A stretch of DNA of 64,000 bases from Limnobacter sp. (GTDB lineage: Bacteria > Pseudomonadota > Gammaproteobacteria > Burkholderiales > Burkholderiaceae_B), in the NCBI RefSeq assembly GCF_036405155.1, contig NZ_DASWYD010000010.1:53118-117117 (forward strand), given 5' to 3'. A model generated the notes under the pieces. That model was not told the origin of the DNA and did no database searches. It was given only the letters and a program-made list of their open reading frames with translations. Below, in pieces: positions 1,463 to 47,926 of the stretch. The translations under genes were made by a program, and so were the position numbers. Numbering within the stretch: position 1 is the stretch's first letter; the number at the start of each line of letters is the position of its first letter.

Positions 1463-1674
1463 TGATGAATTGGTTGATATTGGGTGCAATCGGCCTGCTG
1501 GCGGGCATCCTGTTCTCCGTGTGGCTGATTAACCGCTTGCTCAAAGTACCCACTGCACGGGTCTGGCTGTCCGATTGGGCCAACTGGAGCAACAACCAAA
1601 TTCCCGATGGCTGCTATCAAATGGTTCGGCATGGCAAATGGGTTGCCCATGCGGACCACAGCGAGGACACATGA
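1462..1674 (+). CDS. small single-pass membrane protein, BcsF-like by size and position
   Basis: Internal ATG of ORF 1417..1674 gives a 70-aa product, MMNWLILGAIGLLAGILFSVWLINRLL..., with one N-terminal TM helix. It overlaps the bcsE-like stop (TGATG) and the bcsQ start (ATGA). The position between bcsE and the other bcs genes matches bcsF. Confidence 0.4.
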   Translation: MMNWLILGAIGLLAGILFSVWLINRLLKVPTARVWLSDWANWSNNQIPDGCYQMVRHGKWVAHADHSEDT

Positions 1675-2408
1675 TCACGATCGCCCTGATTTCCAGCATT
1701 GGCGGCGCAGGCAGGACCAGCCTGGCCACGGCGCTGGCTCACCACATGAGCCTGCTGGGCCGGTCCGTACGCTTGGTTCAACTCGACCCCAAGAACAACC
1801 TGCCTTTTCAGCTGGGCTTGAATTCACCCGCCGAGCGGGGCGTTTTTCAAGCCGTGCAGCACCAGCTGTCCATGCTGGACATTCAATTGCCGGTGGATGC
1901 ACCGTTTCAGGCCTGCGCATTCGGCAACACCACGTTGTCGCAGCTGTGCAGTTTTGAACACCAGTTGGTTGACAACCCCCAAAGCCTGACCACCGCCCTG
2001 TTTCGCGACACCCAGGCTGGTGTGATTCAATTGCTGGACCTGCCGGCCTGGCCCAGCGCGATGGCCAATGCAGCGCTGTCATTCACAGACTTGAACCTGG
2101 TTTTGTTGACACCCGACACCCATTCCGTGCTGGGCATCGACCCTTTGCTGCCGCATTTGCTGCGCAGCCGCGGCGCATCGTATTTTTTGATGAACCGGTT
2201 TGACTCCACCAAAGTGCTGCACCTGGACCTGTGGACCCTGTGCAAAACCAAGCTTGGGCACCGCCTGCTGCCGTTCTATCTGCACGAAGACCAAAGCCTG
2301 CCCGAGAGCACGGCCGCTGGCACACCGCTGGGAGCATACGCGCCAAAGTCGCAGTTGCTGGAAGATCACCAGAAACTGGCCAACTGGATTGACGCGGAGT
2401 TGACATGA
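1671..2408 (+). CDS. bcsQ: cellulose synthase operon protein BcsQ (MinD/ParA-family ATPase)
   Basis: Internal ATG at 1671 gives MITIALISSIGGAGRTSLATALAHH..., a deviant Walker A typical of BcsQ/YhjQ. ATGA overlap with the bcsA start. Confidence 0.8.
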   Translation: MITIALISSIGGAGRTSLATALAHHMSLLGRSVRLVQLDPKNNLPFQLGLNSPAERGVFQAVQHQLSMLDIQLPVDAPFQACAFGNTTLSQLCSFEHQLVDNPQSLTTALFRDTQAGVIQLLDLPAWPSAMANAALSFTDLNLVLLTPDTHSVLGIDPLLPHLLRSRGASYFLMNRFDSTKVLHLDLWTLCKTKLGHRLLPFYLHEDQSLPESTAAGTPLGAYAPKSQLLEDHQKLANWIDAELT

Positions 2409-4906
2409 GCGCCGCGCACACCGCCCTGGAACGCGTCCTGGTCCGCATCGAACTGTTGCTGGACCTGCGGACCTATCCCAATCTGGGCTTGTTCCAGCGT
2501 TTCAAACGGATTTTTTTGTCGATGTGGCTTCGCCCGGACAGCCTCAATGCACTGTCCAGCGACGCCAGTAACCCCTCAAGGCAGTCTGCAGTTGGCTTGA
2601 TTGGGCGAATGGTCGGCGCGGCGGTGCACGATCTGTTTTACCCGGTGATTTGGCTCTACAACACGCTGCTTCGCCAACCTTACCGTATTGCCCGCAACCG
2701 CACCGGCAAGGGTGTCGACCGCCTGGCCCAAACCATTCAACTGGAACGCCGGGTGAACAACATCAGTGCCGTGGTGCAAGCATCACGCCCCATTCGCTGG
2801 CTGTTGGGTTTTACAGCGTTGGTGTCTTTCCTCTTCACGGCCCAGGCCTCATTGCCCATTGCCGGGCAGTGGATGTTCATTCTGGTGTGCTATTTGCTGG
2901 CCATGGCCTTCAAGCGCTTGCCCGAACGCTTTTCACACCTGTGCCTGATGGCACTGACGATTTTGGTCTTGGCCCGGTATGTGTTTTGGCGCTTCACCAG
3001 TTCGCTCGACCTGAACAGCGGTATTGAACTGTTTCTGGGCTACACCCTGGTGGTGGCTGAAGCCTACACTTGGCTCATTCTGATTTTCGGATTCATTCAA
3101 ACCGCATGGCCACTGAAGCGTCGGCCTTTGCCCTTGGACCTGAATTTCGCCGAATGGCCCACCGTCGATATTTACATTCCCACCTACAACGAACCGCTAT
3201 CGGTGGTTCGGCCCACGGTCTACGCCGCCAAGGGCATCGACTGGCCAGTGGACAAGGTGACGGTGTACATTCTGGACGACGGCCACCGCCCCGCCTTTGA
3301 AGAATTCGCACGACAGGCAGGCGTGGAGTACATTTCGCGGCCCGACAACTCGCACGCCAAGGCTGGCAACATCAACTATGCGCTGCGCCAAACCCATGGC
3401 CAGTACATTGCGATTTTTGACTGCGACCACATTCCCACCCGTTCATTTCTGCAAACCAGCATGGGTTGGTTCCGCCGCGACCCCAAGTGCGTGCTGGTGC
3501 AAACACCGCACCACTTTTTCTCGGCCGACCCATTTGAACGCAACTTCAACTTTTTCCGGCAAATGCCCAATGAGGGCTCGCTGTTCTATGGCCTGATTCA
3601 GGATGGCAACGACTACTGGAATGCCTCATTTTTCTGCGGCAGCTGTGCCGTGATTGAGCGCAAAGCCCTGTTGGAAGTCGGTGGCATTGCGGTCGAAACG
3701 GTCACGGAAGATGCGCACACCGCACTCAAGTTGCACTCACTGGGTTATCACAGTGTGTACCTGAACAACATTCAGGCAGCAGGCCTGGCGACCGAGACCC
3801 TGGCCGGGCACATCGGTCAGCGCATCCGCTGGGCGCGGGGCATGGCGCAAATTTTCCGGCTGGACAACCCGATGTTCAAGAAGGGGCTCAGCTTCTTCCA
3901 GCGCATTTGTTATTCCAATGCCATGTTGCATTTCTTCTATGGCATTCCCCGGCTGATCTTCCTCATCATGCCGCTGGCCTATTTGTTCTTCGAGTTTCAC
4001 CTCATCAACTCGGCCGCGTTGACCATTCTCAGCTACGCGTTGCCACAGCTGATGATTGCCAGTTACACCAACTCCATCATTCAGGGCAAATACCGCCGCA
4101 GCTTCTGGTCGGAGGTGTATGAAACCGTGCTGTCGTATTACATTGTGCTGCCCACCACCCTGGCATTCATTAACCCTCGCTTGGGCAAGTTCAACGTGAC
4201 GGCCAAGGGTGGCCTCATCGACAAAAGTTATTTTGATGCCAACATTGCCAAGCCTTACCTCATTCTGCTGCTGGTCAATTTGATTGGTTTCGCGGTTGGC
4301 CTTGGCCGCCTGTTTTTCTTCAACACCCATGAAGTGGGCACCGTGCTCATGAACCTGCTGTGGTGCGGCTTTAACCTGGCCATTTTGGGCGCAGCGGTCG
4401 GTGTGGCCACCGAGTCCATTCAAAAGCATGTGCACCACCGGGTCCGCATGATCATGCCTGCATTCCTGCGTCTGCCAGGTGGCTACACATTGAGTTGCCA
4501 CACCGAAGAATATTCAGCGGCGGGCCTCACACTGGCCGTGGGCGAAACTGCAGGGCTGCGGGCGTTCAGCGACGTGCAGGTGGGCCTGCACCGTGGTGAC
4601 CGGGAATTTTTATTCCCGGCCAAATTGATCCCTGTGGATGCGGAGCGTGTGGAAGCACAGTTCAGCAACCTCACCCCCGAACAGGAGGCCCAACTCATTC
4701 AGTGCACCTTTGGCCGTGCCGATGCCTGGTTGAACTGGCAGGAAGACGAAACACGGGACCGTGCCTTGGGTGGCCTGAAAGACGTGCTCAAAAAAGGTGG
4801 CATAGGCTATGTGCGCCTGTTTGCCTGGCTCAACGAGATTGCCCGGGCGGTGACCAACCGCCTGCTGGGCAACCAAGACCAGGCCGAAAACTGGGAGCGA
4901 CGCTGA
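2405..4906 (+). CDS. bcsA: cellulose synthase catalytic subunit BcsA (GT2 with C-terminal PilZ domain)
   Basis: 833 aa and multi-TM. Carries the GT2 motifs DCDH, QTPHHF, TEDAHT and QRIRWARG (QxxRW). The C-terminal PilZ-like region has HHRVR followed by a beta-rich segment. Confidence 0.95.
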   Translation: MSAAHTALERVLVRIELLLDLRTYPNLGLFQRFKRIFLSMWLRPDSLNALSSDASNPSRQSAVGLIGRMVGAAVHDLFYPVIWLYNTLLRQPYRIARNRTGKGVDRLAQTIQLERRVNNISAVVQASRPIRWLLGFTALVSFLFTAQASLPIAGQWMFILVCYLLAMAFKRLPERFSHLCLMALTILVLARYVFWRFTSSLDLNSGIELFLGYTLVVAEAYTWLILIFGFIQTAWPLKRRPLPLDLNFAEWPTVDIYIPTYNEPLSVVRPTVYAAKGIDWPVDKVTVYILDDGHRPAFEEFARQAGVEYISRPDNSHAKAGNINYALRQTHGQYIAIFDCDHIPTRSFLQTSMGWFRRDPKCVLVQTPHHFFSADPFERNFNFFRQMPNEGSLFYGLIQDGNDYWNASFFCGSCAVIERKALLEVGGIAVETVTEDAHTALKLHSLGYHSVYLNNIQAAGLATETLAGHIGQRIRWARGMAQIFRLDNPMFKKGLSFFQRICYSNAMLHFFYGIPRLIFLIMPLAYLFFEFHLINSAALTILSYALPQLMIASYTNSIIQGKYRRSFWSEVYETVLSYYIVLPTTLAFINPRLGKFNVTAKGGLIDKSYFDANIAKPYLILLLVNLIGFAVGLGRLFFFNTHEVGTVLMNLLWCGFNLAILGAAVGVATESIQKHVHHRVRMIMPAFLRLPGGYTLSCHTEEYSAAGLTLAVGETAGLRAFSDVQVGLHRGDREFLFPAKLIPVDAERVEAQFSNLTPEQEAQLIQCTFGRADAWLNWQEDETRDRALGGLKDVLKKGGIGYVRLFAWLNEIARAVTNRLLGNQDQAENWERR

Positions 4907-6640
4907 ATGCTGCCCTGGAACCTCTACTTTCTGATCAAGCTGGGCCTGTACCTGGGCGGTGTGGCGCAACTGGAAGGTTGGATGAACCTCGCCTTGTTTG
5001 CCGGACTGGTGTTGACCAACCCGGTGAAGCGGTTTGCGGGCCGCTGGGCAGGCTTGCTGCGAGACCTCCTCTTCGCTGGCCCGGCCATTGCGCTGCTGCT
5101 GCATGAACTGGGGCTGGTGGTGTCGTGGGCCCTGCTGGATCAAATTCGGCAACTGTTTGGTTTTTCGCTGGGCTATTTGTGGGAACTGGTTCGCCGGTCG
5201 ATTGCCCCCTGGATGCTGTGGAGCGCCCTGGGAGCCTACCTGACCGTGCGCGTGCTGGACCGCTACCTGCGCACCAGCACCTGGGTTTTTTCTGCGTTGG
5301 TGGCGGTTAGTGCATACCAATTGGCATGGCTGGGGCACGATGGCGACAACGACACCGACGATGAGCAAGCCGTGAAGGCAGGCAGCTGGCTGGCCCGAGA
5401 AAATCTGTCACCCGCCGAACTGCTGGCCTTGGGACAAGTGGATTACCAGCGTCTCAAAGTGGCTCGGCACGAAGAACGCATCGCTAAAATCCGGGACAGT
5501 GCCAACAACACCGATGGACCCGACGCCATTTTGAACGGCTTTTTTGAACGGCAAAAAGCCTTGCTACCCGCTGCACTGCATGCCACACCGGTGCCACCCG
5601 ACTTCGACCTGGTCTTCCTGCAAATCTGCTCACTGTCGTGGGCAGACATGCAAGTGGCCCGGCAAACCCAGCACCCGGCTTTGCGCAATGCCGATTTTGT
5701 GTTCGAGAACTTCAACTCCGCCACCAGCTATTCAGGGCCGGCCGCCATTCGCCTGCTGCGCGGCCGCTGTGGCCAACCACGCCACGACGCCCTGTACCAA
5801 CCCACCGAAGACAGTTGCTACCTGTTTGGCCAGCTTCACAACGCCGGGTTCTCGATTGAAGTGGGCTTTAACCACAACGCCCTGTTTGAGAACTTCAGCA
5901 AGCTGGTGTTGAACAACCTGGGCAGCCAGGCCGACCAGCCAGTGCCCTACAACAGCGTGCCCACCGGGGTGGTGGCGTTTGATGGCAGCAGTGTGGGACG
6001 GGATGGCGACTACCTGCGCACCTGGTGGATGAAACGCCAGGAAAGCGGCAAGCCGGCTGTGGCGCTGTATTACAACACCATCACGCTGCACGACGGCAAC
6101 CGCATTCCGGGCAACGACCAAAACAGCCTGGCCACCTACCCGCTGCGGCTGGAGCGCCTCTTGAACGACATTCAAAGTGTGGTGGGGGACATCCGCAAAA
6201 GTGGACGAAAGGCACTGGTGATGGTGGTGCCGGAACACGGCGCTGGTTTGTCGGGCGAGTACGGCCAACTGGTGGGGCTGCGTGAATTGCCCACCCCTGC
6301 CATCACCAAAGTACCCGTGTTTGGTTATTGGGTTGGCCCCAAAACAGGGGGTGACATTCCCCAAAAAACAGCCGACCCCGCAGCCCCGAGAGGGCCTGCG
6401 CTGGTGCGCCAACCGTCCAGCTACACGGCGCTGAGCGAGCTGGTGAACCGCTGGGTGAACGCCACACCGGAACAACGGCAAAACCCCAACTGGACCACAT
6501 TGACAGCCGACTTGCCGACCACACGACTGGTGTCCCAACAGGGCAACATCACCGTGATGGAGAGCAAGGATGCGTACTGGCTGAAAGCGCCGGGTGTTGA
6601 GTGGCGCACACTGGGCCCGGTCAACAAGCTCACGCCGTGA
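4907..6640 (+). CDS. bcsG: cellulose phosphoethanolamine transferase BcsG
   Basis: 577 aa. The N-terminal TM region MLPWNLYFLIKLGLYLGG and the block FENFNSATSYSGPAAIRLLRGRCGQPRHDALYQPTEDSCYLF closely match E. coli BcsG as recalled (FKNFNSATSYSGPAAIRLLRASCGQ...). Also has VVPEHG. The start abuts the bcsA stop (TGAATG). Confidence 0.9.
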   Translation: MLPWNLYFLIKLGLYLGGVAQLEGWMNLALFAGLVLTNPVKRFAGRWAGLLRDLLFAGPAIALLLHELGLVVSWALLDQIRQLFGFSLGYLWELVRRSIAPWMLWSALGAYLTVRVLDRYLRTSTWVFSALVAVSAYQLAWLGHDGDNDTDDEQAVKAGSWLARENLSPAELLALGQVDYQRLKVARHEERIAKIRDSANNTDGPDAILNGFFERQKALLPAALHATPVPPDFDLVFLQICSLSWADMQVARQTQHPALRNADFVFENFNSATSYSGPAAIRLLRGRCGQPRHDALYQPTEDSCYLFGQLHNAGFSIEVGFNHNALFENFSKLVLNNLGSQADQPVPYNSVPTGVVAFDGSSVGRDGDYLRTWWMKRQESGKPAVALYYNTITLHDGNRIPGNDQNSLATYPLRLERLLNDIQSVVGDIRKSGRKALVMVVPEHGAGLSGEYGQLVGLRELPTPAITKVPVFGYWVGPKTGGDIPQKTADPAAPRGPALVRQPSSYTALSELVNRWVNATPEQRQNPNWTTLTADLPTTRLVSQQGNITVMESKDAYWLKAPGVEWRTLGPVNKLTP

Positions 6641-13516: not shown

Positions 13517-14755
13517 ATGCAGATTCAATTGCGCGACCCCTTGGTATTGCCGTGTGGCGCCACCCTGCCCAACCGCCTGGTGAAGGCCGCCATGAGCGAA
13601 GCCCTGGGCACCACCGACAACCGGGTGACCGAGAAACTGGTGCGCGTGTATGAACGCTGGTCGGCTGGCGGCATCGGCATGAACATCACCGGCAACGTCA
13701 TGATTGACCGCCGCGCAAGGGCAGAGCCTGGCAACGTGGTGATTGAAGACGACCGCGACATGCCCCTGCTGAAAGCCTGGGCCAAAGCAGGCCAGTCCCA
13801 CGGCGGGAAAATCTGGGTACAAATCAACCACCCCGGCAAGCAATGCCCCAAGGGCATGAACAAAGAGACGGTGTCCCCGTCCGCAATCCCCTTCCGCAAA
13901 GACCTGCAAATGATGTTTGCCACACCGCGCGCTCTGGAAGAGTCTGAAATTCTGGACCTGATCCAGCGCTGGGGCCGCACCGCCCGCATTTGCAAGGAAG
14001 CGGGTTTTGACGGTGTGCAAATTCACGGCGCACATGGTTACCTCATCAGCCAGTTTTTAAGCCCGCTCACCAACCAGCGCACCGATGCCTGGGGTGGCAG
14101 TTCTGAAAACCGCCGCCGTTTTGTGTTGGCCGTCTATGACGAGGTGCGCAAGCAGGTGGGCCCCGACTTCCCTGTCGGCATCAAATTGAACTCGGCCGAT
14201 TTCCAGCGTGGTGGCTTTAGCGAGGAAGAGTCCCTGGCGGTGATTGAAGAATTGACCGCACGCGGCATCGACTTGGTGGAAGTGTCCGGCGGTACCTATG
14301 AAGCACCCGTGATGACCGGCGCCACCCAACCCAAGAAAGACAGTACCGTGAAACGCGAAGCCTATTTCATCGACTTCACCGAGAAAGTGCGGGCGCGCTG
14401 CAAAGTGCCCCTGATGCTGACGGGCGGGTTCCGAACAGTGGGTGGCATGAAGCAGGCGCTGAACACCGGTGCGGTGGATGTGATTGGCCTGGCCCGCTCC
14501 ATTGCCATTGAACCCGAATTGCCCAGCCGCTTGCTGGCTGATCAAGAAGCCCAGTACCCAGTAAAACCGTTGATCACCGGGGTGAAGGCAGTGGACAATT
14601 CCGGCTTGCTGGAAATTCAGTGGTACACCCGCCAGATTCACCGCATGGGCAAGGGGAAAAACCCGGTGCCCAACGAGCATCCACTGAAGGTGCTGTTTTT
14701 CTACCTGATTGAAAGCAGCTGGGGATTGTTCAAGTCCCGTCGCTTGCGGGCTTGA
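13517..14755 (+). CDS. NADH:flavin oxidoreductase (Old Yellow Enzyme / 2,4-dienoyl-CoA reductase-like)
   Basis: 412 aa with LPNRLVKAAMSE, WVQINHPG and HGAHGYLISQFLSPLTNQRTD, which are OYE TIM-barrel motifs. Confidence 0.85.
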   Translation: MQIQLRDPLVLPCGATLPNRLVKAAMSEALGTTDNRVTEKLVRVYERWSAGGIGMNITGNVMIDRRARAEPGNVVIEDDRDMPLLKAWAKAGQSHGGKIWVQINHPGKQCPKGMNKETVSPSAIPFRKDLQMMFATPRALEESEILDLIQRWGRTARICKEAGFDGVQIHGAHGYLISQFLSPLTNQRTDAWGGSSENRRRFVLAVYDEVRKQVGPDFPVGIKLNSADFQRGGFSEEESLAVIEELTARGIDLVEVSGGTYEAPVMTGATQPKKDSTVKREAYFIDFTEKVRARCKVPLMLTGGFRTVGGMKQALNTGAVDVIGLARSIAIEPELPSRLLADQEAQYPVKPLITGVKAVDNSGLLEIQWYTRQIHRMGKGKNPVPNEHPLKVLFFYLIESSWGLFKSRRLRA

Positions 14756-14767
14756 TGTGTTTGGCTG

Positions 14768-14784
14768 GGCTCACGGCGTGAGCC
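14768..14784 (+). terminator. hairpin GGCTCAC-GGC-GTGAGCC downstream of the OYE gene
   Basis: 7-bp GC-rich stem followed by TATTTA. A nearly identical hairpin occurs at 21691-21706. It may be a terminator or part of, or a target for, the repeat that follows. Confidence 0.4.
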
Positions 14785-14797
14785 TATTTAGTTGATT

Positions 14798-15225
14798 GCC
14801 CCCCAGCAACACCGGAAGCCCGGTCCGAACGCCCCCCGAAGGTAAAGGTTGCCCCGCGCACTCGAACCGGACCGATAACTCGCGCCGATGGCGCTCAGAC
14901 ATCTCGGTCCGTGTGTTCGAATGCTGTGCGGGTCAAACCGATCGGGGGGCTGACTGTTCGGCACCGGGCATACCGGTATTGCTGGGGGGCGAAAAGACTC
15001 GGTGCAATTTGGTGGCACCGTCACTGCGGCATGCGCGGTTGACCTCCCCTGCAGCGACAGTCAGGGCCATTGGCCCGAGCGTGCCAAACAGGTGCGGTGG
15101 GCACAGCCGCCAGGCTGGCCCAAAGGTCGATCCCGACTCGCTGTTTGGAGGGGCGACCTTAGCGATCGTGCGGCTCAGCGAGGGAAATACCAATGGACCG
15201 TCGCCAAGGGCGAGGTAACCGCGCT
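14798..15225. repeat. structured intergenic repeat, copy A (candidate ncRNA or ORF-less mobile element)
   Basis: About 428 bp, highly similar to 21765-22174. The 5' half folds as a long rod with four helices: 14798-14815/14973-14990, 14818-14823/14964-14969, 14825-14830/14956-14961 and 14831-14839/14942-14950. An inner helix pairs 14862-14874 with 14905-14920, capped by an apical hairpin at 14882-14894. No credible ORF; the overlapping ORFs are similar between copies only at the nucleotide level. Confidence 0.75.
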
Positions 15226-15280
15226 GCGCCGCAGCCCACGCGCCTTGATTGAAGCGGTCTCGAAATGTCGCGACTACAAT

Positions 15281-16054
15281 TCAATCCTTGTAATCCGCCG
15301 CCACCCGATCCAATTTCCGCAATAACGCCGGCCACGCAATATTGCCACCCGCACTCAAAGTCACCTTCTCAGCCGCCGCTTGAATACCCGCCACAATGCG
15401 TGGGTCCACCTGAATCAGCGCGCCGCCACTGCTTTGCGCCTTCACCTGGATTTCACACGACCGTTGCAAAAAGAACATACGCAAAAACGCATCCGCCACC
15501 GTTTTATCGCAGGTCAGCAATCCATGGTTGCGCAAGATCATGCTGCAGGTGTTGCCCAGGTCTGCCACCAAACGCACTTTTTCTTCCGGGTTCAATGCAA
15601 TGCCTTCGTAGGCGTGGTAACTCAGGCCCGACATCGGAAACAGCGAATGCTGTGAAATCGGCAGCAGTCCGTCCTTCTGTGTCGACACCGCCACGCCATC
15701 CACGGTGTGCAGGTGAATCACGCAGTTGGCGTCTTCACGGGCTTCGTGAATGGCGCTGTGAATGGTAAAACCAGCCGGGTTGATCTCATAGGGGCTGTCC
15801 ATCACCTTGCGCCCCTGCAAATCAACTTTGACCAGGCTGCTGGCCGTGATCTCTTCAAACAACAAACCATAGGGGTTGATCAGGAAGTGATGTTCCGGCC
15901 CCGGCACACGGGCAGAGATGTGGGTGAACACCAAGTCATCCCAGCCATACATGGCCACCAGGCGGTAACACGCAGCCAGGTCCACGCGCATGCGCCATTC
16001 TTCGGCGCTCACGTGTTCACGCAGTGAGTGGGTGTTGGGCAATGGTGCATTCAT
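15281..16054 (-). CDS. class II aldolase/adducin family protein
   Basis: 257 aa preceded by GAGGAGA. DLAACYRL, THISARVP and NCVIHLHT are typical of this family. Confidence 0.85.
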   Translation of the reverse strand: MNAPLPNTHSLREHVSAEEWRMRVDLAACYRLVAMYGWDDLVFTHISARVPGPEHHFLINPYGLLFEEITASSLVKVDLQGRKVMDSPYEINPAGFTIHSAIHEAREDANCVIHLHTVDGVAVSTQKDGLLPISQHSLFPMSGLSYHAYEGIALNPEEKVRLVADLGNTCSMILRNHGLLTCDKTVADAFLRMFFLQRSCEIQVKAQSSGGALIQVDPRIVAGIQAAAEKVTLSAGGNIAWPALLRKLDRVAADYKD

Positions 16055-20346: not shown

Positions 20347-20430
20347 AGTAAATGCTCATCCGAAAACTGACCGAGGGCGTATAAACTCCATCCACACCAT
20401 TTACTGCTACGCAACATCGGGCCGGGCATC

Positions 20431-21678: not shown

Positions 21679-21690
21679 GTGTTTTGATCG

Positions 21691-21706
21691 GGCTCACGGC
21701 GTGAGC
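21691..21706 (+). terminator. hairpin GGCTCACGGCGTGAGC downstream of the PhaC-like gene
   Basis: Same sequence as the hairpin at 14768-14784. No clear U-tract. Confidence 0.35.
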
Positions 21707-21764
21707 TTGATCCGTGCCGATTCATTTGCCCCTCAGCAAGGCCGGTAGCAGGTGCCTGTTTATT

Positions 21765-22174
21765 ACCCCCCAGCAATACCGGTTGCCCGGTCCGAACGCC
21801 CCCCGAATGCAAAGGTTGTCCCGCGCCCTCGAACCGGACCGAGAACTCGCCACTGCGTGGCTCAGACATCTCGGTCCGTGTGTTCGAATGCTGTGCGGGT
21901 CAAACCAATCGGGGGGCTGAATGTTCGGCACCGGGCACACCGGCATTGCTGGGGGCATGACACCGAGTCGTTTAGCGGCCTGTGCGGTTCACCTCCCCTG
22001 CAGCGACAGTCAGGGCCATTGGCCCGAGCGTGACAAGCAGGCGCGGTGGGCACAGCCGCTAGGCTGGCCCAAAGGTCGATCCCGACTCGCTGTTTGGAGG
22101 GGCGACCTTAGCGATCGTGCGGCTCAGCGAGGGAAACACCAATGGACCGTCGCAAAGGGCGAGGTAACTGCGCT
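21765..22174. repeat. structured intergenic repeat, copy B
   Basis: About 410 bp, collinear with 14798-15225 and diverged only in a central segment of about 50 bp. The apical hairpin at 21849-21861 (GCCAC-TGC-GTGGC) differs from copy A (GCGCC-GAT-GGCGC) by two compensatory pair changes. Confidence 0.75.
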
Positions 22175-22273
22175 AGCCCCGATCTGCCACCAAAATGCTC
22201 CGTTCAACATCACACCCCAAAAAAACAAAACCCTCCACTCGGGAGGGTTCTGCACTTCAGCACTGCCAACCGA

Positions 22274-40820: not shown

Positions 40821-43800
40821 TCAGGGGTTGCAGGTCAAATCACTGCCTCCGCCATCGCACGATACAGGCCGCATCAATTCTCCGGTGCCTTCTGTGGCCG
40901 GTCGCCCAGGCCCCACTTCCATCACCACCCCGTTGATCACCCGGTTGGTCACGTTCTCGGTGCGCACCACAGACAAGGTTTGTTCTTGCCGTGCCAGCAC
41001 CAAGGCACCCTGTGCAGAAATCAGTGCCGCCGATTCCTGCGGGGACAGCAGCAAGGACCCGTTGTAACTGACCGGAATTCGAGTCAAGTCACGGGCACCA
41101 TCGTAAAAGAATGCATACACGCCCGGGTTGTCCGGACCGGACAAAAACACCACCTGCCCGGGCAACTGGGATGCGCCGTTGTGTGGCAGCACCGTGACGT
41201 AGCCCCCAAGGCCCTTCCGGCTGGTTTCCCCCACCGACACGGCGATGGCTGTTCCCGCCGCATTGGCGTTGCCACCACCTGCGCCAAAAGGGTAAACCTG
41301 GCTGGCGCCCAGGCGGCCACCTTGAACGCTTGGAATGGACAAGGTCAACCCGGGGAAGGATGCCTGCACCCCCGCGGCGGTGTCGTTGTAGGGCAAGCGC
41401 GCACGGATTTGACTACCAGCCGCCGTGCTCAAGCCGGCAGAGGCAATGGCCACCATGTCGGCCTCAACACCAGCCCCATCTACGGACAGGGGTGCTGCGT
41501 TTTGCACACTCGCAAGGCTCAAGCCTTGATCGGGCCGGTAAGAATACGCTTCACCAGGAGATGAACCCGCCAACACCGTCAAACTGCCCGCGATGTCATT
41601 CATTTGATTCAAAAACACCGACCCATTGCCAGGTGTCCTGAAGCCGAGTCGGCTACCGGCCTGTGTTCGAATGGTTCCACCAGTTTGCTCAATCACCGGT
41701 GCTGCAACGTCGATACGGCCCAGGCCCGTGGTGGGCTCTACAGCGTCCTTTCCGGAATACACGTCCAGCGTTGCTGGCAGCTTGAGCGCAACATTCGCCG
41801 ACGACAAGGGTTGTGGAATGCCACGCGCCACAAAATTCAGTTGACCGGCACCCAAGGCCACGTTGCCATTCAAGCGGAGATTGCGCTCCACCTCCACAGT
41901 GCCACCAGCATCCAGCGCAAGCTGCCCCAGCGTCAAATCGCCCTGCGCCTTCAAGTCCAGCCGGTTGGCGGTCACATGCACATCGGACCCAAATTGATTG
42001 TTGTCACCGGTCAAGTCCACAACTCCGCCGACCGCATGGATGGTGGTTTGCCCGTCCACATGAACCTGTCCACCCTGGCTCACCGATTGAGCCTGAATCG
42101 TCAGTGCACCTCGGACCGTACTGTCACCCAATTGAAGCGCAGTGGCTTGCACCTGTGCATCGCCCTGCGTGTTCACCGCCAAAGGTCCATTCCACTGTGT
42201 GGCGTTCACTGTCAGCGAGGGTTGGTTGGATACAGAGGCTTCACCCTGGCCCACCAAAGTCAAGGTGCCATAAATGGCATTTTGTGGGTGATCCAAGTGA
42301 ATGGCCGATGCCTGAATGGTGGCATCCCCCCAGTGCACACCATTGTTTGGACCGGTGTTCTGTTGAACCTGGCTGGCCATCACGTTCACAGCGCCTTGAA
42401 CTTTGCTGTTGGCCAAACTGAGTTGATCCGCTTGCACGGTCAGCGATCCACCCACCTGCCCACCCAACGTCAGGTTTTCGCCCTGCACGTGCAAGTCATT
42501 TTGATCACTGAGCGTCGCCACCGCTTGAACGCCTCGGGTATTGCTCACCAACACCGTCTGTTTGAAATCGTTCTGGGCATTGTTCAGATTCACCTGGTTC
42601 GCGTCCAGCGCGGCAATGTCAACGGTCAGTGCACTTTTTTGCGAAATGGACTCGGCCTTTGCAGTCAACTGACCAATCCCGCCAGTGCTGTCAAACACCA
42701 CGGCCCGTGCATCCAGCACCGCCTGTTGCAGGCCGTCCGAATGCAATGTCAACACACCGTCTGCCTTGGCGTCCAGGTGACTCACCTGTGTGCTGATCAA
42801 CGCCACATCGCCACGGGCATTGAGTGTCAAGTCGTGCGCACTGGCCTCCACGGTTCTGGCTTGCGTTTGCAACGCCAGCATATTTTGGTCTGTGATTTGC
42901 ACACGGTCTGCCGTCACACTGACCACACCGCCAAAATCATTCCGTGCATTGGTCAGTGCCACCGTGTTGGCCACCAGGGTGGTGCCGCCTGCCACCACCA
43001 AGGGTGCTGTTTGCACAATGCTGCCTGCTGTGACGTCCAGTGTTTTAAGGGGCCCAGTGGCCAAGGTGGCCTCGCCTGCAGTGCGCAGTTTGAGCGAATC
43101 GGCTTGACCACGCACGGTCAGGCTGCGCTGCGAATTCAACGCGACATCGGCGCCCTGCACGGTAACCTCACTGCCCAACCGGTTTGCAGCGTGCTGCAAG
43201 TCGATGCGCTGCGCATCAAACTGACTGGAGCCACCCACAACCAATGGGCCCACTTGCCCGATCGATTGGGGGGCGCTGACCCGCAGTGTGGACCCGACCT
43301 GGCTTTGGCCCAGCGTGATTTGATCGTCACCAACCAACTGCGCACTTTCTGCAGTCAGGGTCACGGTGCCCCCCCAATGGTTGTCCGCTCGTGTCAGTTC
43401 AACGGACTGACCCTTGAAATCGGCAGAACCCCGCGACTGTACAACACCAGCCTGTGAAATGTTTCCCGGTGTTTGCACAGACCATGCATCGGCCTGCCCT
43501 CGCAACAACAGGTCGGACTGGGCAGCCAGTGCAACAGTGCCGGCATCCACCACAACGGGTCCGGTCAACTGGTTTTGCGTGTTCGACAAAGCCACCTGCG
43601 CCGCTTGCAAGGTCAAGGGCCCAGCCACTGTGAATGCGCCGTTTTGCGCCAGCCGTTGCGCACCCAGGGTTGTGTCGCCCAGGGTGTTTAAACCGCCGGT
43701 ACCCACGGTCAGGGTGTTGCCGGAATGGGCGTCCAAGGTGTTGGTTGTGCCGCTGACAGAATAGGACGATGTGCTGTCCAGCTTCGCCTGTTGGGTGTTC

Positions 43801-45332
43801 AACTGGACATTGCCCAGCCACTGGTTGCCCAAGTGTTGCAGAGTGACCGAGTGGGCCTGCAGATTGCTGTTTCCGCTGACCCGCAATGCACCCTGTTGGT
43901 CGATGGCTTGGTTGGTCTTCACCGTCAAACTGCCCACCGTGGTGGCATTGAAGTGAACCGAATCGGTGGATTGCACCGTGAGTGAATCCGCCTGAACCCC
44001 CAGCTGCAACGCTTGATTGGCCACCACATCCACCTGGCCAGCATTCACGGTCAAACCACCGCTCACCACCGGGTTGGCCAACTGAACACGCCCCGTGGCC
44101 GCCAGGTTCGCATCGTTGGCGGTCAGGTTAACCTTGCCAGACCATGTGTTGTTGGCATTGGCCAATGCGACTTGGTCGGCCGACACCGTGAGATCGCCGC
44201 CAATCGACAAGGCAGCATTGTTGGACATCGATTGCGAGACGGCCGACTGTGAGACTGTGTTTGCTGCAAACACCACATCGCCATCCACTGTCAAGCCGGT
44301 TGAGGCGATGGTGAGGTGTTGAGCACGGACCTGCACATGATCTGCCGTTCCGCCCAGTTGCACATCGCCTTGGGCTGTTAGTTGCGCACCACCGCCTGCA
44401 AGATTGACCCCCCCCTGAAACTGGTTTTGTGCATGGTCCAAGGTGAGGGCATTGGCTGTAAACGTTGCAGGGCCAGCCACATGGACCGCTTGGGTCTGAC
44501 CGACCAAGTCGGCCTGAACAGACAAGGCCCCATCGACCGTACCGGCCAGCATGATCTGGTCGCCCTGCGCAACCAGCGCTTGCGCTTGCGTCACGCCGGC
44601 CGTGTTGATCACACTGGGATTGCCATGGGCATTGCTGCGGGCCACCAGCATCACGGTGCCATCGGGCGCATTGATTTGCCCCAACTGCTGAATAAAGGCC
44701 TGCTCATGTCCTGCGTCCACCTGAAAGGCGATGAAGTCCCCCTGCAGGTTGGCAGTGACCGCACTGGCTGCCAACAGGCTGACTTGCCCACCGGGGCTGG
44801 TGCGCAAGGTACCCGTGTTCGACACGCTGGGGGCAACAAAGACCAGTTGTTGCCCCTCAATCACACCATCCACTTGAATGCTGCCCGCGTTTTTATCGGC
44901 AGTCAGCGTTAGATTGCCCTGTTTAACAGGCCCCTGCGTGTCCAGCGTAGAGGCCACCAAAGCCCCCACACTGACTTGGGCATTGGGCCCAAACACAATG
45001 CCGTTTGGATTGATCAAAAAAACGCGACCATTGGATTTCAATTGGCCAAAAATGTTGGACGCTGTGCTGCCTGTGACCCGATTGAGCATCACCGCCTGAC
45101 CATCCGGCTGAACAAACTGAACTGTTTCGCCTTCGGGCACCGAAAAGTTTTTCCACAACACCGTCGCCACTGGCGTGTCGGCTTTCTGATTCACCAGCAG
45201 GGTGTTTTTGACCGAGGTGTCCAGCGTGACGCCACCCCCAGGGTTGGCCTGATATTCGGGCAAGGCCAGCGCGGCACCGGAACAGGTCCACAACAGGGCA
45301 GCGGCCAGGGGCTTTCGCTTGAATGCGCGCAC
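40821..45332 (-). CDS. two-partner secretion exoprotein (TpsA, filamentous haemagglutinin-like adhesin; CdrA-like C-terminus)
   Basis: GTG at 45332, 9 nt after GGAG, gives the signal peptide (M)RAFKRKPLAAALLWTCSGAALA. TPS-domain motifs NTLLVNQ and FLINPNGIVFGPNAQV. Many beta-helical repeats of about 100 aa. TAAG at nt 41370-41381. C-terminal CDGGGSDLTC at 40830-40859. Confidence 0.9.
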   Translation of the reverse strand: MRAFKRKPLAAALLWTCSGAALALPEYQANPGGGVTLDTSVKNTLLVNQKADTPVATVLWKNFSVPEGETVQFVQPDGQAVMLNRVTGSTASNIFGQLKSNGRVFLINPNGIVFGPNAQVSVGALVASTLDTQGPVKQGNLTLTADKNAGSIQVDGVIEGQQLVFVAPSVSNTGTLRTSPGGQVSLLAASAVTANLQGDFIAFQVDAGHEQAFIQQLGQINAPDGTVMLVARSNAHGNPSVINTAGVTQAQALVAQGDQIMLAGTVDGALSVQADLVGQTQAVHVAGPATFTANALTLDHAQNQFQGGVNLAGGGAQLTAQGDVQLGGTADHVQVRAQHLTIASTGLTVDGDVVFAANTVSQSAVSQSMSNNAALSIGGDLTVSADQVALANANNTWSGKVNLTANDANLAATGRVQLANPVVSGGLTVNAGQVDVVANQALQLGVQADSLTVQSTDSVHFNATTVGSLTVKTNQAIDQQGALRVSGNSNLQAHSVTLQHLGNQWLGNVQLNTQQAKLDSTSSYSVSGTTNTLDAHSGNTLTVGTGGLNTLGDTTLGAQRLAQNGAFTVAGPLTLQAAQVALSNTQNQLTGPVVVDAGTVALAAQSDLLLRGQADAWSVQTPGNISQAGVVQSRGSADFKGQSVELTRADNHWGGTVTLTAESAQLVGDDQITLGQSQVGSTLRVSAPQSIGQVGPLVVGGSSQFDAQRIDLQHAANRLGSEVTVQGADVALNSQRSLTVRGQADSLKLRTAGEATLATGPLKTLDVTAGSIVQTAPLVVAGGTTLVANTVALTNARNDFGGVVSVTADRVQITDQNMLALQTQARTVEASAHDLTLNARGDVALISTQVSHLDAKADGVLTLHSDGLQQAVLDARAVVFDSTGGIGQLTAKAESISQKSALTVDIAALDANQVNLNNAQNDFKQTVLVSNTRGVQAVATLSDQNDLHVQGENLTLGGQVGGSLTVQADQLSLANSKVQGAVNVMASQVQQNTGPNNGVHWGDATIQASAIHLDHPQNAIYGTLTLVGQGEASVSNQPSLTVNATQWNGPLAVNTQGDAQVQATALQLGDSTVRGALTIQAQSVSQGGQVHVDGQTTIHAVGGVVDLTGDNNQFGSDVHVTANRLDLKAQGDLTLGQLALDAGGTVEVERNLRLNGNVALGAGQLNFVARGIPQPLSSANVALKLPATLDVYSGKDAVEPTTGLGRIDVAAPVIEQTGGTIRTQAGSRLGFRTPGNGSVFLNQMNDIAGSLTVLAGSSPGEAYSYRPDQGLSLASVQNAAPLSVDGAGVEADMVAIASAGLSTAAGSQIRARLPYNDTAAGVQASFPGLTLSIPSVQGGRLGASQVYPFGAGGGNANAAGTAIAVSVGETSRKGLGGYVTVLPHNGASQLPGQVVFLSGPDNPGVYAFFYDGARDLTRIPVSYNGSLLLSPQESAALISAQGALVLARQEQTLSVVRTENVTNRVINGVVMEVGPGRPATEGTGELMRPVSCDGGGSDLTCNP

Positions 45333-45347
45333 GATGAAAATCTCCAA

Positions 45348-47051
45348 TCAGAAGTTGTAGGTGACGGTGGCAAACAGGCGAGGGGTTTGCACCTTTGGGT
45401 CGGACTTGGGCTGCCCCTGAAGTGGCCAAGCCACACTCACATTGAGTGCAAACTGTCGGGTCATGTCCCACGACCAGGAAAAGCCATACCCGGCCAGTTC
45501 ATCCAGATTGTTGAAGCCCGATGGGCGTCCCGATGCATCGTTGCGATGGTGTACACGCCCCTGGTCGTAGAAGGCGTTCAATGACATGTTCCGACCAGCC
45601 TCGCCCAACCAGGCATGATTCAAAATGTGCCGAAGCTCCAGCGTGGCCAACGTACAGGTGTCACCCGCCGCCTCGCCTTGTGCAAAAGCGCGCACAGCGG
45701 TCGATCCACCCAAGGCACATTGGTCGCTGCTGTCCAGGTTGTCGTAGGCGTCCTGGCCGCGAACATGCGCCCACAGCATCCACTGACCGGCAATCAGGGT
45801 CTGCAAACGGGACAGGCTGTATTGACTGCGCAGTGACCGGGGTTCATCGTCCAGACCAAAGGGGCGGCCTGCCGGATAAAAAGTTTTGCTTTGCTCAAGC
45901 GTCCAGTTGAAAAAACTCAAGCCGCCACCGAAGGCGGCATCCCGTGCATCGCCGGAGAGGGCCAACCGAAGACTGTCAATGGTTTTTCGGGTCTCCAAAC
46001 CTGCCAGCGATTGTCGATCGGTCAGGGTGCGATGGTCCTGTCCAGCCAGTGCAAACAGGTTCAGGTTTCGGGATCGAATGAGCGGATACAAACCAAACAC
46101 ACCCACGGTGCTGGCATCCCCATTCAGGCCCAACGGAAAATCATTGTTGTTCAGTTGATAATGAACGGTGGATGCATTGAGCCCCAATTTAAAGCCATCG
46201 GCACCCACCGGCACGGTGTAACCCAACAGTGAAAACTCCAGACCACCGGTGTCCGATTGCAGGTGGCTGAACGACAATGAATCGCCCAACCCCAGAGGGC
46301 TTTCCCAATATCCGGAGAGCGTGGCGCGATTGCTGCCCGCGTAGCGCGAGCCATTGGCATCCAGCGCCAAGCTGCCTGACAACACTTCACCTTGGGAAGG
46401 CATGGCCACCAACACGGCAGTGCCGGGTTGATCGCCTGGTTTCACCGCAAAGCGGACATGGACTCCACGCAGGTCATTGAGCAAGAACACTACGCGCTCT
46501 ACCTCAGACACGCGAATGATTTGACCGGGTTTCAAGGCATTGAGGTGTGCTTCAATCACACTGCGTTTTACACGGAGCTCCTCCGCAGGCCACTGCACTT
46601 CCACCTTTTCCAACACGCCGGGCAGTACCTGTATGCGGACCACGCCATTGCTGACGTTTTGCGCAGGCAGATAGGCATAGGCCAAATACAGTCCAAGGTC
46701 GCGTTGCAAATAGGCAGTGACCACCTGAACCGCATTGGACAAGTCCTCGAAATGACGCCCCTTCCCCGTGTACGCTTGAAGTTGTTGGTGCAGGGCTTCA
46801 CTGTCCGCTGGTGCGTAGCCCACAATCTCAAAACGCTCAACGTCCACCGACACGTCGCTCAATGGTTTGGCCAGCTCCGGCGACACACTGGCCGGCAAAG
46901 CGGCTGAATGGTCAGACTCCGCAGGGCGCCCACGCTGTTCCTGCATGGGCATGGACTCGTTGAGCAGCGACGCTGGCGTGCTGACCTGTGCACCGGCCAA
47001 GGACTGCCATCCAATGCCTGCACACCCCAATAACACCGTCAGTAAACGCAT
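45348..47051 (-). CDS. TpsB outer-membrane transporter (ShlB/FhaC/HecB family)
   Basis: 567 aa with a signal peptide, a POTRA-like N-terminal region, a beta-barrel and terminal ...FATVTYNF. Located directly upstream of the TpsA gene. Confidence 0.9.
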   Translation of the reverse strand: MRLLTVLLGCAGIGWQSLAGAQVSTPASLLNESMPMQEQRGRPAESDHSAALPASVSPELAKPLSDVSVDVERFEIVGYAPADSEALHQQLQAYTGKGRHFEDLSNAVQVVTAYLQRDLGLYLAYAYLPAQNVSNGVVRIQVLPGVLEKVEVQWPAEELRVKRSVIEAHLNALKPGQIIRVSEVERVVFLLNDLRGVHVRFAVKPGDQPGTAVLVAMPSQGEVLSGSLALDANGSRYAGSNRATLSGYWESPLGLGDSLSFSHLQSDTGGLEFSLLGYTVPVGADGFKLGLNASTVHYQLNNNDFPLGLNGDASTVGVFGLYPLIRSRNLNLFALAGQDHRTLTDRQSLAGLETRKTIDSLRLALSGDARDAAFGGGLSFFNWTLEQSKTFYPAGRPFGLDDEPRSLRSQYSLSRLQTLIAGQWMLWAHVRGQDAYDNLDSSDQCALGGSTAVRAFAQGEAAGDTCTLATLELRHILNHAWLGEAGRNMSLNAFYDQGRVHHRNDASGRPSGFNNLDELAGYGFSWSWDMTRQFALNVSVAWPLQGQPKSDPKVQTPRLFATVTYNF

Positions 47052-47158
47052 TGCTCAATTCCCGAAAAACGCAAAAGTTGCATTCAACAACAAGGGTGCC
47101 GAAACAACGAATGGCATCGTTGGATCAGCATCAACCTGCTGAACTAACCCATACCCGC

Positions 47159-47923
47159 CTATGCGGATAGCCGAACCAACAAGGTGGTGAGGTTGTCTGC
47201 ACGCCCGGCTGCGCGCCTGCGCACCACGTCGTGCAAGTGCTTCACGGCGCTTTCAGCGCTGGGGGTGCATGCAACGATGGCAGCCAGTTCCCCGTCGGTC
47301 ACCTGTTCCCATACACCATCCGAGCACAGCGCAAACCAGTCGCCAGGCTGCAAGGGGGCGTTGCACTCATCCACTTGAATCGCCAAGTCGGCGGTGGGTT
47401 GACCCAATGCGCTGTAGAGGGTGTTTCGGCTCACGGTCGACCAGTCACCTGGATGATCTTGTTGCCACTGCAACACACTGTGGTCGCGTGTTTTGAAAAC
47501 CACGCGCCCAGCCTGCCCCCAATACAAGCGCGTGTCGCCCACATGCACCCACGAAGCCATTGGGGCCTGCAGGTCGATCATCAACATACACACGGTGGAA
47601 TGCATGTCCGACAAGGCGGGATTGAGAATCTGCTGGGTCAACACTTGCTGATTGCAATCCCGTACCCAAGCCGTCAAAGCGGTCCGCGCAGGCACCTTGT
47701 GCACATCGGGGCAGTGCGTCAGTGCCATGTCGACCACCAGTCGAGCAGCAGCCTCGCCACCGCGATGTCCGCCTGCACCATCGGCCACCACCCCCACAAA
47801 TTGCCCAGACTGAACATGCCAAACCACGGCATCCTGATTGCTGGGCCGATCGCCTTGCTCACTGAGGGCATAGACATCAAGCTCAAGCTGTGCGCCTTTG
47901 CTCCACTGCACAGTGTGTTCCAC
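47159..47923 (-). CDS. pppA: PP2C-family Ser/Thr phosphatase PppA (T6SS-associated)
   Basis: RPSNQDAV and VVADGAGGHRGGEAAARL are PP2C motifs. GTG start. Adjacent to the fha gene. Confidence 0.85.
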   Translation of the reverse strand: MEHTVQWSKGAQLELDVYALSEQGDRPSNQDAVVWHVQSGQFVGVVADGAGGHRGGEAAARLVVDMALTHCPDVHKVPARTALTAWVRDCNQQVLTQQILNPALSDMHSTVCMLMIDLQAPMASWVHVGDTRLYWGQAGRVVFKTRDHSVLQWQQDHPGDWSTVSRNTLYSALGQPTADLAIQVDECNAPLQPGDWFALCSDGVWEQVTDGELAAIVACTPSAESAVKHLHDVVRRRAAGRADNLTTLLVRLSA

Positions 47924-47926
47924 CGG

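Follow-up and report, generated by a model that had tools for sequence, protein, structure and literature searches.

A gene-less intergenic element built of two long hairpins recurs at several sites in Limnobacter

The 64,000 nucleotides (nt) of Limnobacter sp. DNA analysed here (contig NZ_DASWYD010000010.1; the whole stretch is termed 'the window' below) contain two copies of an intergenic element of ~450 bp, which lacks an open reading frame (ORF), consists of two long hairpins and is found at several intergenic sites within the genus Limnobacter. [quoted passage not shown] No Rfam family, collection search or paper that we found describes the element and our look at the literature on Limnobacter repeats found nothing; its kind is familiar.

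Copy A (~14767-15234) occupies, as the initial annotation of this DNA had it, the convergent gap of ~525 bp between an old yellow enzyme gene (OYE, Oxidored_FMN; 13517-14755, + strand) lying upstream and a class II aldolase gene (15281-16054, - strand) that faces the element, with no conserved ORF inside the gap. A second copy some 7 kb away in the same kind of context had also been proposed, and is indeed found at 21758-22174, with a start-to-start distance from copy A of 6.95-6.97 kb. This copy B (~21690-22175, the small H0 hairpin described below being included in both copies) follows the stop codon of an upstream alpha/beta-hydrolase gene within the convergent gap that this gene forms with a pstS-like gene. 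The genes adjoining copies A and B are mutually unrelated and each copy sits just past a stop codon. To call the two copies near-identical is, however, too strong given an overall identity of 86.7% (the 5' rod reaching 89% and the 3' module 95%), a linker with 18 nt of indel and 44 extra nt at the 5' side of copy B, among them a partial repeat of the start of the rod (described below). Matches at 61781-61803 and 62148-62176 were rejected as extra copies: a Ser/Thr kinase gene contains both, and the similarity is due to chance. A tandem-repeat array at the 5' end of the element was not detected by TRF.

By its OYE protein the window belongs to Limnobacter (Burkholderiales), and the nearest genome is that of Limnobacter humi (L. 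humi) NBRC 111650 (98% protein identity). It holds the element at both orthologous sites (sites A and B), a separate deletion having occurred in each: site A is without the segment that matches window positions 15103-15173, site B has lost the linker together with the 3' arm of its 5' rod, and both deletions leave the core of the 3' module whole. Since L. humi has both orthologous sites filled, the insertions predate the split between the window species and L. humi. Most Limnobacter species (loci L003-L016 and L024-L026) encode a class I cytochrome c of ~105 amino acids (aa) with a CAICH motif between OYE and aldolase (e.g. L012:11242-11605), a place that the repeat element takes in L. humi and the window species (window 14756-15280); L006 and L023 have neither. 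With a small cytochrome c gene there instead, the idea that the OYE/aldolase gap of other species is a diverged homologue of the element was dropped, and with this gene or nothing at site A elsewhere in Limnobacter, the element is therefore a clade-specific insertion.

Outside these two genomes, one match to a degenerate 34-nt core pattern places the element downstream of a desaturase gene on metagenome contig L037, and blastn identifies a truncated element between paaX-like and hydrolase genes in the metagenome-assembled genome SMAG_U1345 (L025:7697-7736), a site that differs from that of copy B. L025 and L037 match the 3' half only and both matches are at contig ends. In total, at least three Limnobacter lineages carry the family, with four distinct intergenic sites occupied, which - together with the lack of a reading frame open in both copies - bears out the earlier description of an ORF-less, structured element present at multiple sites. 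Searches by nhmmer and by a covariance model (R1), which covered ~670 kb of Limnobacter loci, found no copies beyond the known ones, nor did ten lookups of loci around orthologues of the flanking genes. Likewise, plasmid and phage collections gave no match to blastn in its 'distant' setting, viral contigs none to the degenerate 34-nt core pattern and metagenome contigs none to an exact 22-mer from the 5' rod. An exact 22-mer from the 3' insert (see below) matched no GTDB representative genome, L. humi included, which it missed because of one mismatch at site B and the deletion at site A. The family is rare, and probably low-copy. Logan contigs of the window species end inside copy A.

As to the fold, the claim that the element is highly self-complementary is confirmed. 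The minimum free energy (MFE) of region 14750-15230 is -268.7 kcal/mol on the + strand and -268.9 kcal/mol on the - strand, whereas dinucleotide shuffles average -208 and -197 kcal/mol, respectively (z -9.3 and -10.4), and 0/100 shuffles fold as well as the region itself. The architecture is modular: after a small hairpin come partial 5'-arm units (from none to two), then a 5' rod of ~195 nt, a variable linker and a 3' rod of ~130-215 nt. The two rods are not paralogous, their alignment score being inside the shuffle range. A rod-plus-pseudoknot-like architecture had been suggested; instead, the 3' half is a second self-contained rod, and no pseudoknot was found (none was tested for).

The 3' module of copy A (15024-15234, + strand) forms a rod of ~210 nt, of which 15031-15226 match the covariance model; the corresponding match of copy B is at 21980-22175 (+ strand), where the outermost 3' extension is truncated compared to copy A and L. 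humi site B. We distinguish a conserved core of ~125 nt from an apical insert of variable length, and RNAalifold returns one shared fold for the five sequences aligned, with internal loops of at most ~5 nt. In copy A coordinates, the outer stem P1 pairs 15033-15050 with 15207-15224 and is extended by 15024-15030 with 15228-15234; P2 is the invariant helix between GCGAC (15054-15058) and GTCGC (15200-15204); the long-range helix P3 includes CCATTGG (15067-15073) with CCAATGG (15190-15196); and P4 is a hairpin at 15081-15095. The apical insert (15103-15173, + strand) occurs in copies A and B and at L. humi site B; L. humi site A has lost it by deletion, and in L037 a 16-nt hairpin takes its place. 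P1 of L037 has nearly all of its sequence changed with pairing kept, and P3 covaries in that L037 has CAATCTG/CAGATTG. Over the whole alignment 93.8% of the cells at pair positions are paired, and eight pairs show double compensatory changes as opposed to 2.0 +/- 1.2 in shuffles (0/500 reach this number) and 0-2 in controls with slid partners.

This conserved fold differs from the pairings first proposed for the 3' half. The long-range pairing between CCCCTGCAGCGACAGTCAGGG and CCCGACTCGCTGTTTGGAGGGG is absent from the MFE structure, and cannot be conserved because its 3' partner lies in the insert (15103-15173) that is missing from L. humi site A and from L037. Similarly, the local hairpin GGGCC-ATT-GGCCC gives way to the covarying long-range helix CCATTGG/CCAATGG.

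On the 5' side, an 18-nt hairpin (H0) opens both window copies, each time 12 nt past the upstream stop codon: after the OYE gene in copy A (GGGCTCACGGCGTGAGCC; 14767-14784, + strand) and after the alpha/beta-hydrolase gene in copy B (GGGCTCACGGCGTGAGCT; 21690-21707, + strand). H0 is shared with L. humi site A and missing from L. humi site B. In copy B it is followed by a partial extra 5'-arm unit (CCCCTCAGCAAGGCCGGTAGCAGG; 21729-21752, + strand), which repeats the first ~25 nt of the rod arm, and similar partial units precede both L. humi copies, so that three of four copies carry them. On L037 (1320-1385, minus strand), we also observed the 3' arm of the element (CGCCAAGGGGCTTGGCCCCGGCG) duplicated in tandem 21 nt downstream. 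Partial terminal duplications of this sort, whether of the 3' arm as in L037 or of the 5' arms upstream of the two L. humi copies and copy B, seem to characterise the family.

The 5' module (14796-14992 in copy A, 21765-21956 in copy B) is an interrupted rod of ~195 nt with ~76-78 pairs. Its MFE structure in copy A pairs 14796-14809 with 14979-14992 and continues inwards, in agreement with the rod, the inner helix and the apical hairpin (14882-14894) as these were originally located. This apical hairpin reads GCGCC-GAT-GGCGC in copy A and GCCAC-TGC-GTGGC in the other three copies, which amounts to two compensated stem changes; the 5' rod has a few such changes in all, the others being at pairs 6/189 and 19/176. 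The linker that joins the modules (14993-15023 in copy A) is shorter in copy B, and neither L. humi copy retains it, owing to deletion.

When the window is compared with L. humi, identity is 85-91% in the four modules, 85-90% in the neighbouring genes, 55-74% in the immediate flanks of the element and 65% at 4-fold degenerate sites. Within each genome, the copies can resemble one another even more: identity between the two L. humi rods is 96.7%, versus 88-93% to their orthologues, and the window inserts (copies A and B) share 98.8% identity. That paralogues are at times closer than orthologues therefore points to gene conversion.

The two modules differ in strand preference. Read on the + strand, the 3' module has G.U at 11 pair positions versus A.C at 4, and all five sequences are more stable on this strand (by 2-14 kcal/mol), while the 5' rod is more stable on the - strand in 3/3 sequences (by 7-12 kcal/mol). 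Copies A and B share one orientation, and the element is oriented like its upstream gene in 3/3 cases in which that gene is known. Taken together with the compensatory changes and with conservation above that of the flanks, the G.U excess on the + strand supports the initial proposal of a structured RNA as far as the 3' module is concerned; beyond the 3' module, the proposal finds no such support.

A coding role was examined and rejected: no reading frame is open in both copies, substitutions come without codon periodicity and a six-frame pseudo-protein query, aimed at spurious ORF calls on homologues, has no protein relatives. In line with the earlier impression that this is no known RNA, Rfam 15 had nothing at gathering score in the whole window and, at E<=10 over 14650-15350, a single spurious match (Enterovirus CRE, 16.7 bits versus a cutoff of 46); ARAGORN detected neither tRNA nor tmRNA. 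None of the 40 window ORFs scanned with Pfam contains a transposase, reverse transcriptase (RT), integrase/recombinase, TnpB, IscB, IS110 or Y1 domain, and the same domains are lacking from the precomputed Pfam annotation of loci around flanking-gene orthologues (L003-L037 are not annotated). No sigma-70-like promoter was found in copy A or copy B.

How might such an element arise and persist? We envisage that an agent acting in trans copied the element, as DNA, into a few intergenic sites, that copies within one genome may have been homogenised by gene conversion and that insertions would have survived only in convergent gaps past stop codons, where they are presumably harmless. The 3' module, and in the window genome the 5' rod too, may then persist because a long stable hairpin has to form on the + strand, most likely in RNA that is read through from the upstream gene. 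There the hairpin could act as a 3'-end structure of the mRNA, which either stops 3' exonucleases or serves as a processing substrate of RNase III or RNase E, and it could insulate the two convergent genes from one another. What the data show is the fold with its covariation, the conservation, the spread over several sites and the lack of coding capacity; that the element is transcribed, from which strand, with what effect on mRNA and by what means it moves are aspects that we infer.

Several observations weigh against this scenario of a palindromic repeat kept for its fold. The eight compensatory pairs all stem from one split, that of L037 from the rest, and hence reflect few independent events; moreover, template-switch 'correction' of quasi-palindromes at the DNA level could mimic the covariation of the 3' module. 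That the RNA is the level of constraint, and which strand is used, is what we infer, and the opposite strand preferences of the two modules are not explained by one transcript. Read-through could be limited by a terminator-like hairpin (14766-14786) with a T-rich tail between the OYE gene and the element, and there is no intrinsic terminator after the 3' module. The 5' rod is decaying in L. humi, with six or seven pairs broken at site A and half of the rod deleted at site B. In addition, the composite has no terminal inverted repeats (TIRs) and a candidate target-site duplication (TSD) only, and the copy number looks low, unlike a typical MITE burst, with copies A and B alone in the 64 kb of the window and a further 21 kb of L. 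humi holding none.

Other explanations have to be weighed. One sees in the 3' module an undescribed class of structured non-coding RNA (ncRNA) that is held under purifying selection, carried as a low-copy mobile cassette and active in trans as a guide or scaffold or as a regulator. We consider this unlikely, and the same low probability goes to its specific forms, in which a stand-alone RNA would be an orphan TnpB/IscB omega-RNA or an IS110 bridge-RNA-like scaffold, or else a small RNA (sRNA), with the 5' rod as an accessory. Functional RNAs typically look like this, with a conserved core (here ~125 nt) of covarying helices that accommodates a variable apical insert, and the G.U excess on the + strand, conservation of the 3' module well above its flanks, L. 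humi deletions that spare the core, low-copy dispersal and sequences that vary between copies just beyond the 3' end would all fit. Yet Rfam, whose contents include HEARO and IS605-orfB models, yields no match, domains of TnpB, IscB, IS110, Y1 or RT are missing from the 40 window ORFs and the annotated loci, and the RNA would need to be made from a region with no sigma-70-like promoter found and no terminator at its 3' end. What lies upstream of the 3' module is not conserved either (here it is the linker, which L. humi has lost by deletion, and L025 and L037 have unrelated sequence there), and internal loops of ~5 nt or less are too small for the guide loops of a bridge RNA. An orphan guide-RNA scaffold of the HEARO or omega-RNA type, as raised in the initial annotation, is thus not supported by Rfam, the 40 window ORFs and the annotated loci.

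Mobility as ssDNA offers another view, according to which the element is non-autonomous and moved by an HUH (Y1) transposase - like the PATEs of IS200/IS605 or RAYT-dependent REPINs - that recognises the hairpins in ssDNA. The composite lacks TIRs and a clear TSD, hairpin stability is strand-asymmetric (ssDNA, too, tolerates G.T pairs), copies A and B point the same way, and partial 5'-end units upstream of three of four copies are what repeated insertion at one preferred target would leave. TTGAT-like motifs occur at the module boundaries of copy A (14752, 14792, 15245) and another Limnobacter foldback begins with GTAG, as REPs do. However, three TTGAT occurrences versus ~0.8 expected (the background across the window is 1.4 per kb per strand) are not significant and are not conserved in the L. 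humi copies. Hairpins of 130-215 nt are far above the ~20-40 nt known in general for IS200/IS605 ends or REPs, the modules prefer opposite strands, the ORFs and loci scanned have no Y1 transposase or RAYT domain, and conservation of orthologous copies between species would be unexpected for inactive selfish relics. Our confidence in a transposon of this type is accordingly low. Less probable still, to our minds, is a functionless relic, i.e. a local segmental duplication or decaying junk DNA in which self-complementarity has no consequence. This could account for only two copies in the window, 7 kb apart, for deletions and broken pairs in the L. humi copies and for rarity in public data, where exact-pattern scans of genome and metagenome collections gave one match and the L. 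humi copies came via a protein scan. It is at odds with four different sites in at least three lineages, with modules of 85-91% identity between species next to flanks of 55-74%, with eight compensatory base pairs, with deletions that spare the core and with unrelated genes beside copies A and B.

If the element does belong to a palindromic repeat family with a constrained 3' module, the palindromic intergenic repeats of betaproteobacteria, which are poorly catalogued, gain a modular family with clear limits, and breaks in Limnobacter assemblies at these loci are accounted for. With orthologues in two species, converting paralogues and a distant compensated relative at hand, such a small family would also lend itself to a compact study of what preserves repeats of this kind, be it selection on RNA structure or processes at the DNA level. 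Should the 3' module act in trans instead, it would represent a new RNA class, for which a covariance model to search complete genomes has already been built.

The element fits a landscape of several intergenic foldback repeat families in Limnobacter. A separate MITE, with TIRs of ~75 nt beginning CTGAAAACC, lies between paaX-like and hydrolase genes; this long-TIR MITE is found at L014:19342-20010, L011:12331-13020, L012:18096-18555, L024:8168-8449 and L060:10876-11010, a remnant of ~34 nt is present at the paaX-like/hydrolase site of L025, and Logan contigs L055-L059 and L061 end inside it. It is probably high-copy. A GTAG-headed foldback of ~190 nt that resembles REP or REPIN sequences is located between desaturase and rpmG genes (L044:11270-11450, L051:2620-2800), starts with GTAGCAGCGTTACCC or GCAGCAGCGTTACCC and, in the L044 copy, ends with GCAACGCTGCTGC and folds equally well on both strands. 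Neither the L011, L012 and L014 insertions nor the L044 foldback were accepted as homologues of our element, local alignment scores being inside the shuffle range. Finally, the hairpin motif GGCTCA-N5-TGAGCC (up to two mismatches) occurs 11 times in the window versus 0.34 expected from shuffles, at 1736, 6627, 14768, 21691, 31563, 36605, 37813, 42077, 51803, 59300 and 62160; at least two of these (6627, 62160) are inside coding sequence, and the motif may be REP-like or an effect of codon usage.

In the window itself, the paaX-like and hydrolase genes are separated by a gap of 84 nt (20347-20430; L021:16773-16870), which shows 94% identity to L. humi and holds TAGAGTAAAYSCTCATCCGAA, conserved across Limnobacter. 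This gap is probably an operator or promoter region. The wider gene context (1575-6640, 40821-60736) includes a cellulose synthesis cluster with BcsQ, a BcsA-like GT2 enzyme with a PilZ domain and BcsG, a two-partner secretion (TPS) pair formed by a 1508-aa TPS-domain protein and a ShlB-type transporter, and type VI secretion genes (FHA, VgrG, OmpA-family, TssK/VasE, IcmF/TssM); genes for a PP2C phosphatase and for a Ser/Thr kinase accompany them.

Integron attC sites have R''/R' cores of the form RYYYAAC ... GTTRRRY, measure 57-141 bp and follow mobile cassette ORFs; we rejected this assignment because the rod ends CAGCAAC ... GTTGCTG are off the core consensus, the rod is ~195 nt long and the upstream genes are syntenic core genes across Limnobacter. 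A retron would call for an RT domain, and none is near either copy or in the 40 window ORFs, just as the comparison with IS110 bridge RNAs, whose target and donor guides sit in two large internal loops beside a DEDD recombinase gene, fails on the size of the internal loops and for want of a recombinase gene in the window ORFs scanned. With omega-RNA scaffolds (HEARO, the right-end RNA (reRNA) of IS605-orfB/TnpB, PATE) the element shares a structured, non-coding and ORF-less make-up of several hundred nt, multiple copies and varying flanks, but it consists of two simple rods rather than a multi-stem scaffold with a pseudoknot, no conserved target or target-adjacent motif (TAM) was found and no copy adjoins tnpB or iscB among the 40 window ORFs and the annotated loci. 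A PATE, one of the origins considered at the outset, would have a fixed target motif of 4-5 nt directly 5' of its left end; it finds no support here, TTGAT being neither enriched nor conserved. REP, BIME and REPIN sequences are similarly extragenic palindromes past stop codons that form strand-specific hairpins and may stabilise mRNA 3' ends. They differ in size (~20-40 nt for a REP, ~100 nt for a REPIN) and in their GTAG head, while our modules of ~195 and 130-215 nt start with CCCCCCAGCAAC and GCGCGGTTGACC, and neither a RAYT nor, in the 40 ORFs, a Y1 domain was seen.

Closer are MITEs (including Correia/NEMIS), which are also non-coding, dispersed, intergenic foldback elements of a few hundred bp at which assemblies break; the long-TIR Limnobacter MITE (L014:19342-20010) even has intergenic hot spots in common with the element. 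The element is non-coding with several dispersed copies, its copy number per genome looks low and each module alone is an imperfect inverted repeat. Still, it is no MITE (an origin raised at the outset) in the strict sense, since the composite is without TIRs (no inverted repeat of at least 40 nt with a 14-nt exact seed joins its outer ends) and the sole candidate TSD is a single case. This candidate, TTGATTG at 14792-14798 and 15245-15251 (+ strand), is seen in copy A, just before the 5' rod and after the 3' rod; L. humi site B has a 7-of-8 match, and the left TTGATTG also resembles part of the repeated 5' unit. Furthermore, a parent insertion sequence is not known, and the element has a conserved interior and an outer stem that covaries, the reverse of what holds for an element whose TIRs are bound by a transposase. 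To our minds, the element is most like ERIC, a comparison that draws on general knowledge of architecture and behaviour and does not claim membership. ERIC (or IRU) sequences of Enterobacteria are 127-bp imperfect palindromes in intergenic regions near gene ends; the Limnobacter element is not known to be related to them in sequence, is 3-4x longer, combines two tandem rods with a small hairpin and is confined to one betaproteobacterial genus. What both have in common is a gene-less, intergenic imperfect palindrome with size variants at a fixed internal site, a copy number that can be low, dispersal without a known transposase and pairing that is kept across diverged copies.

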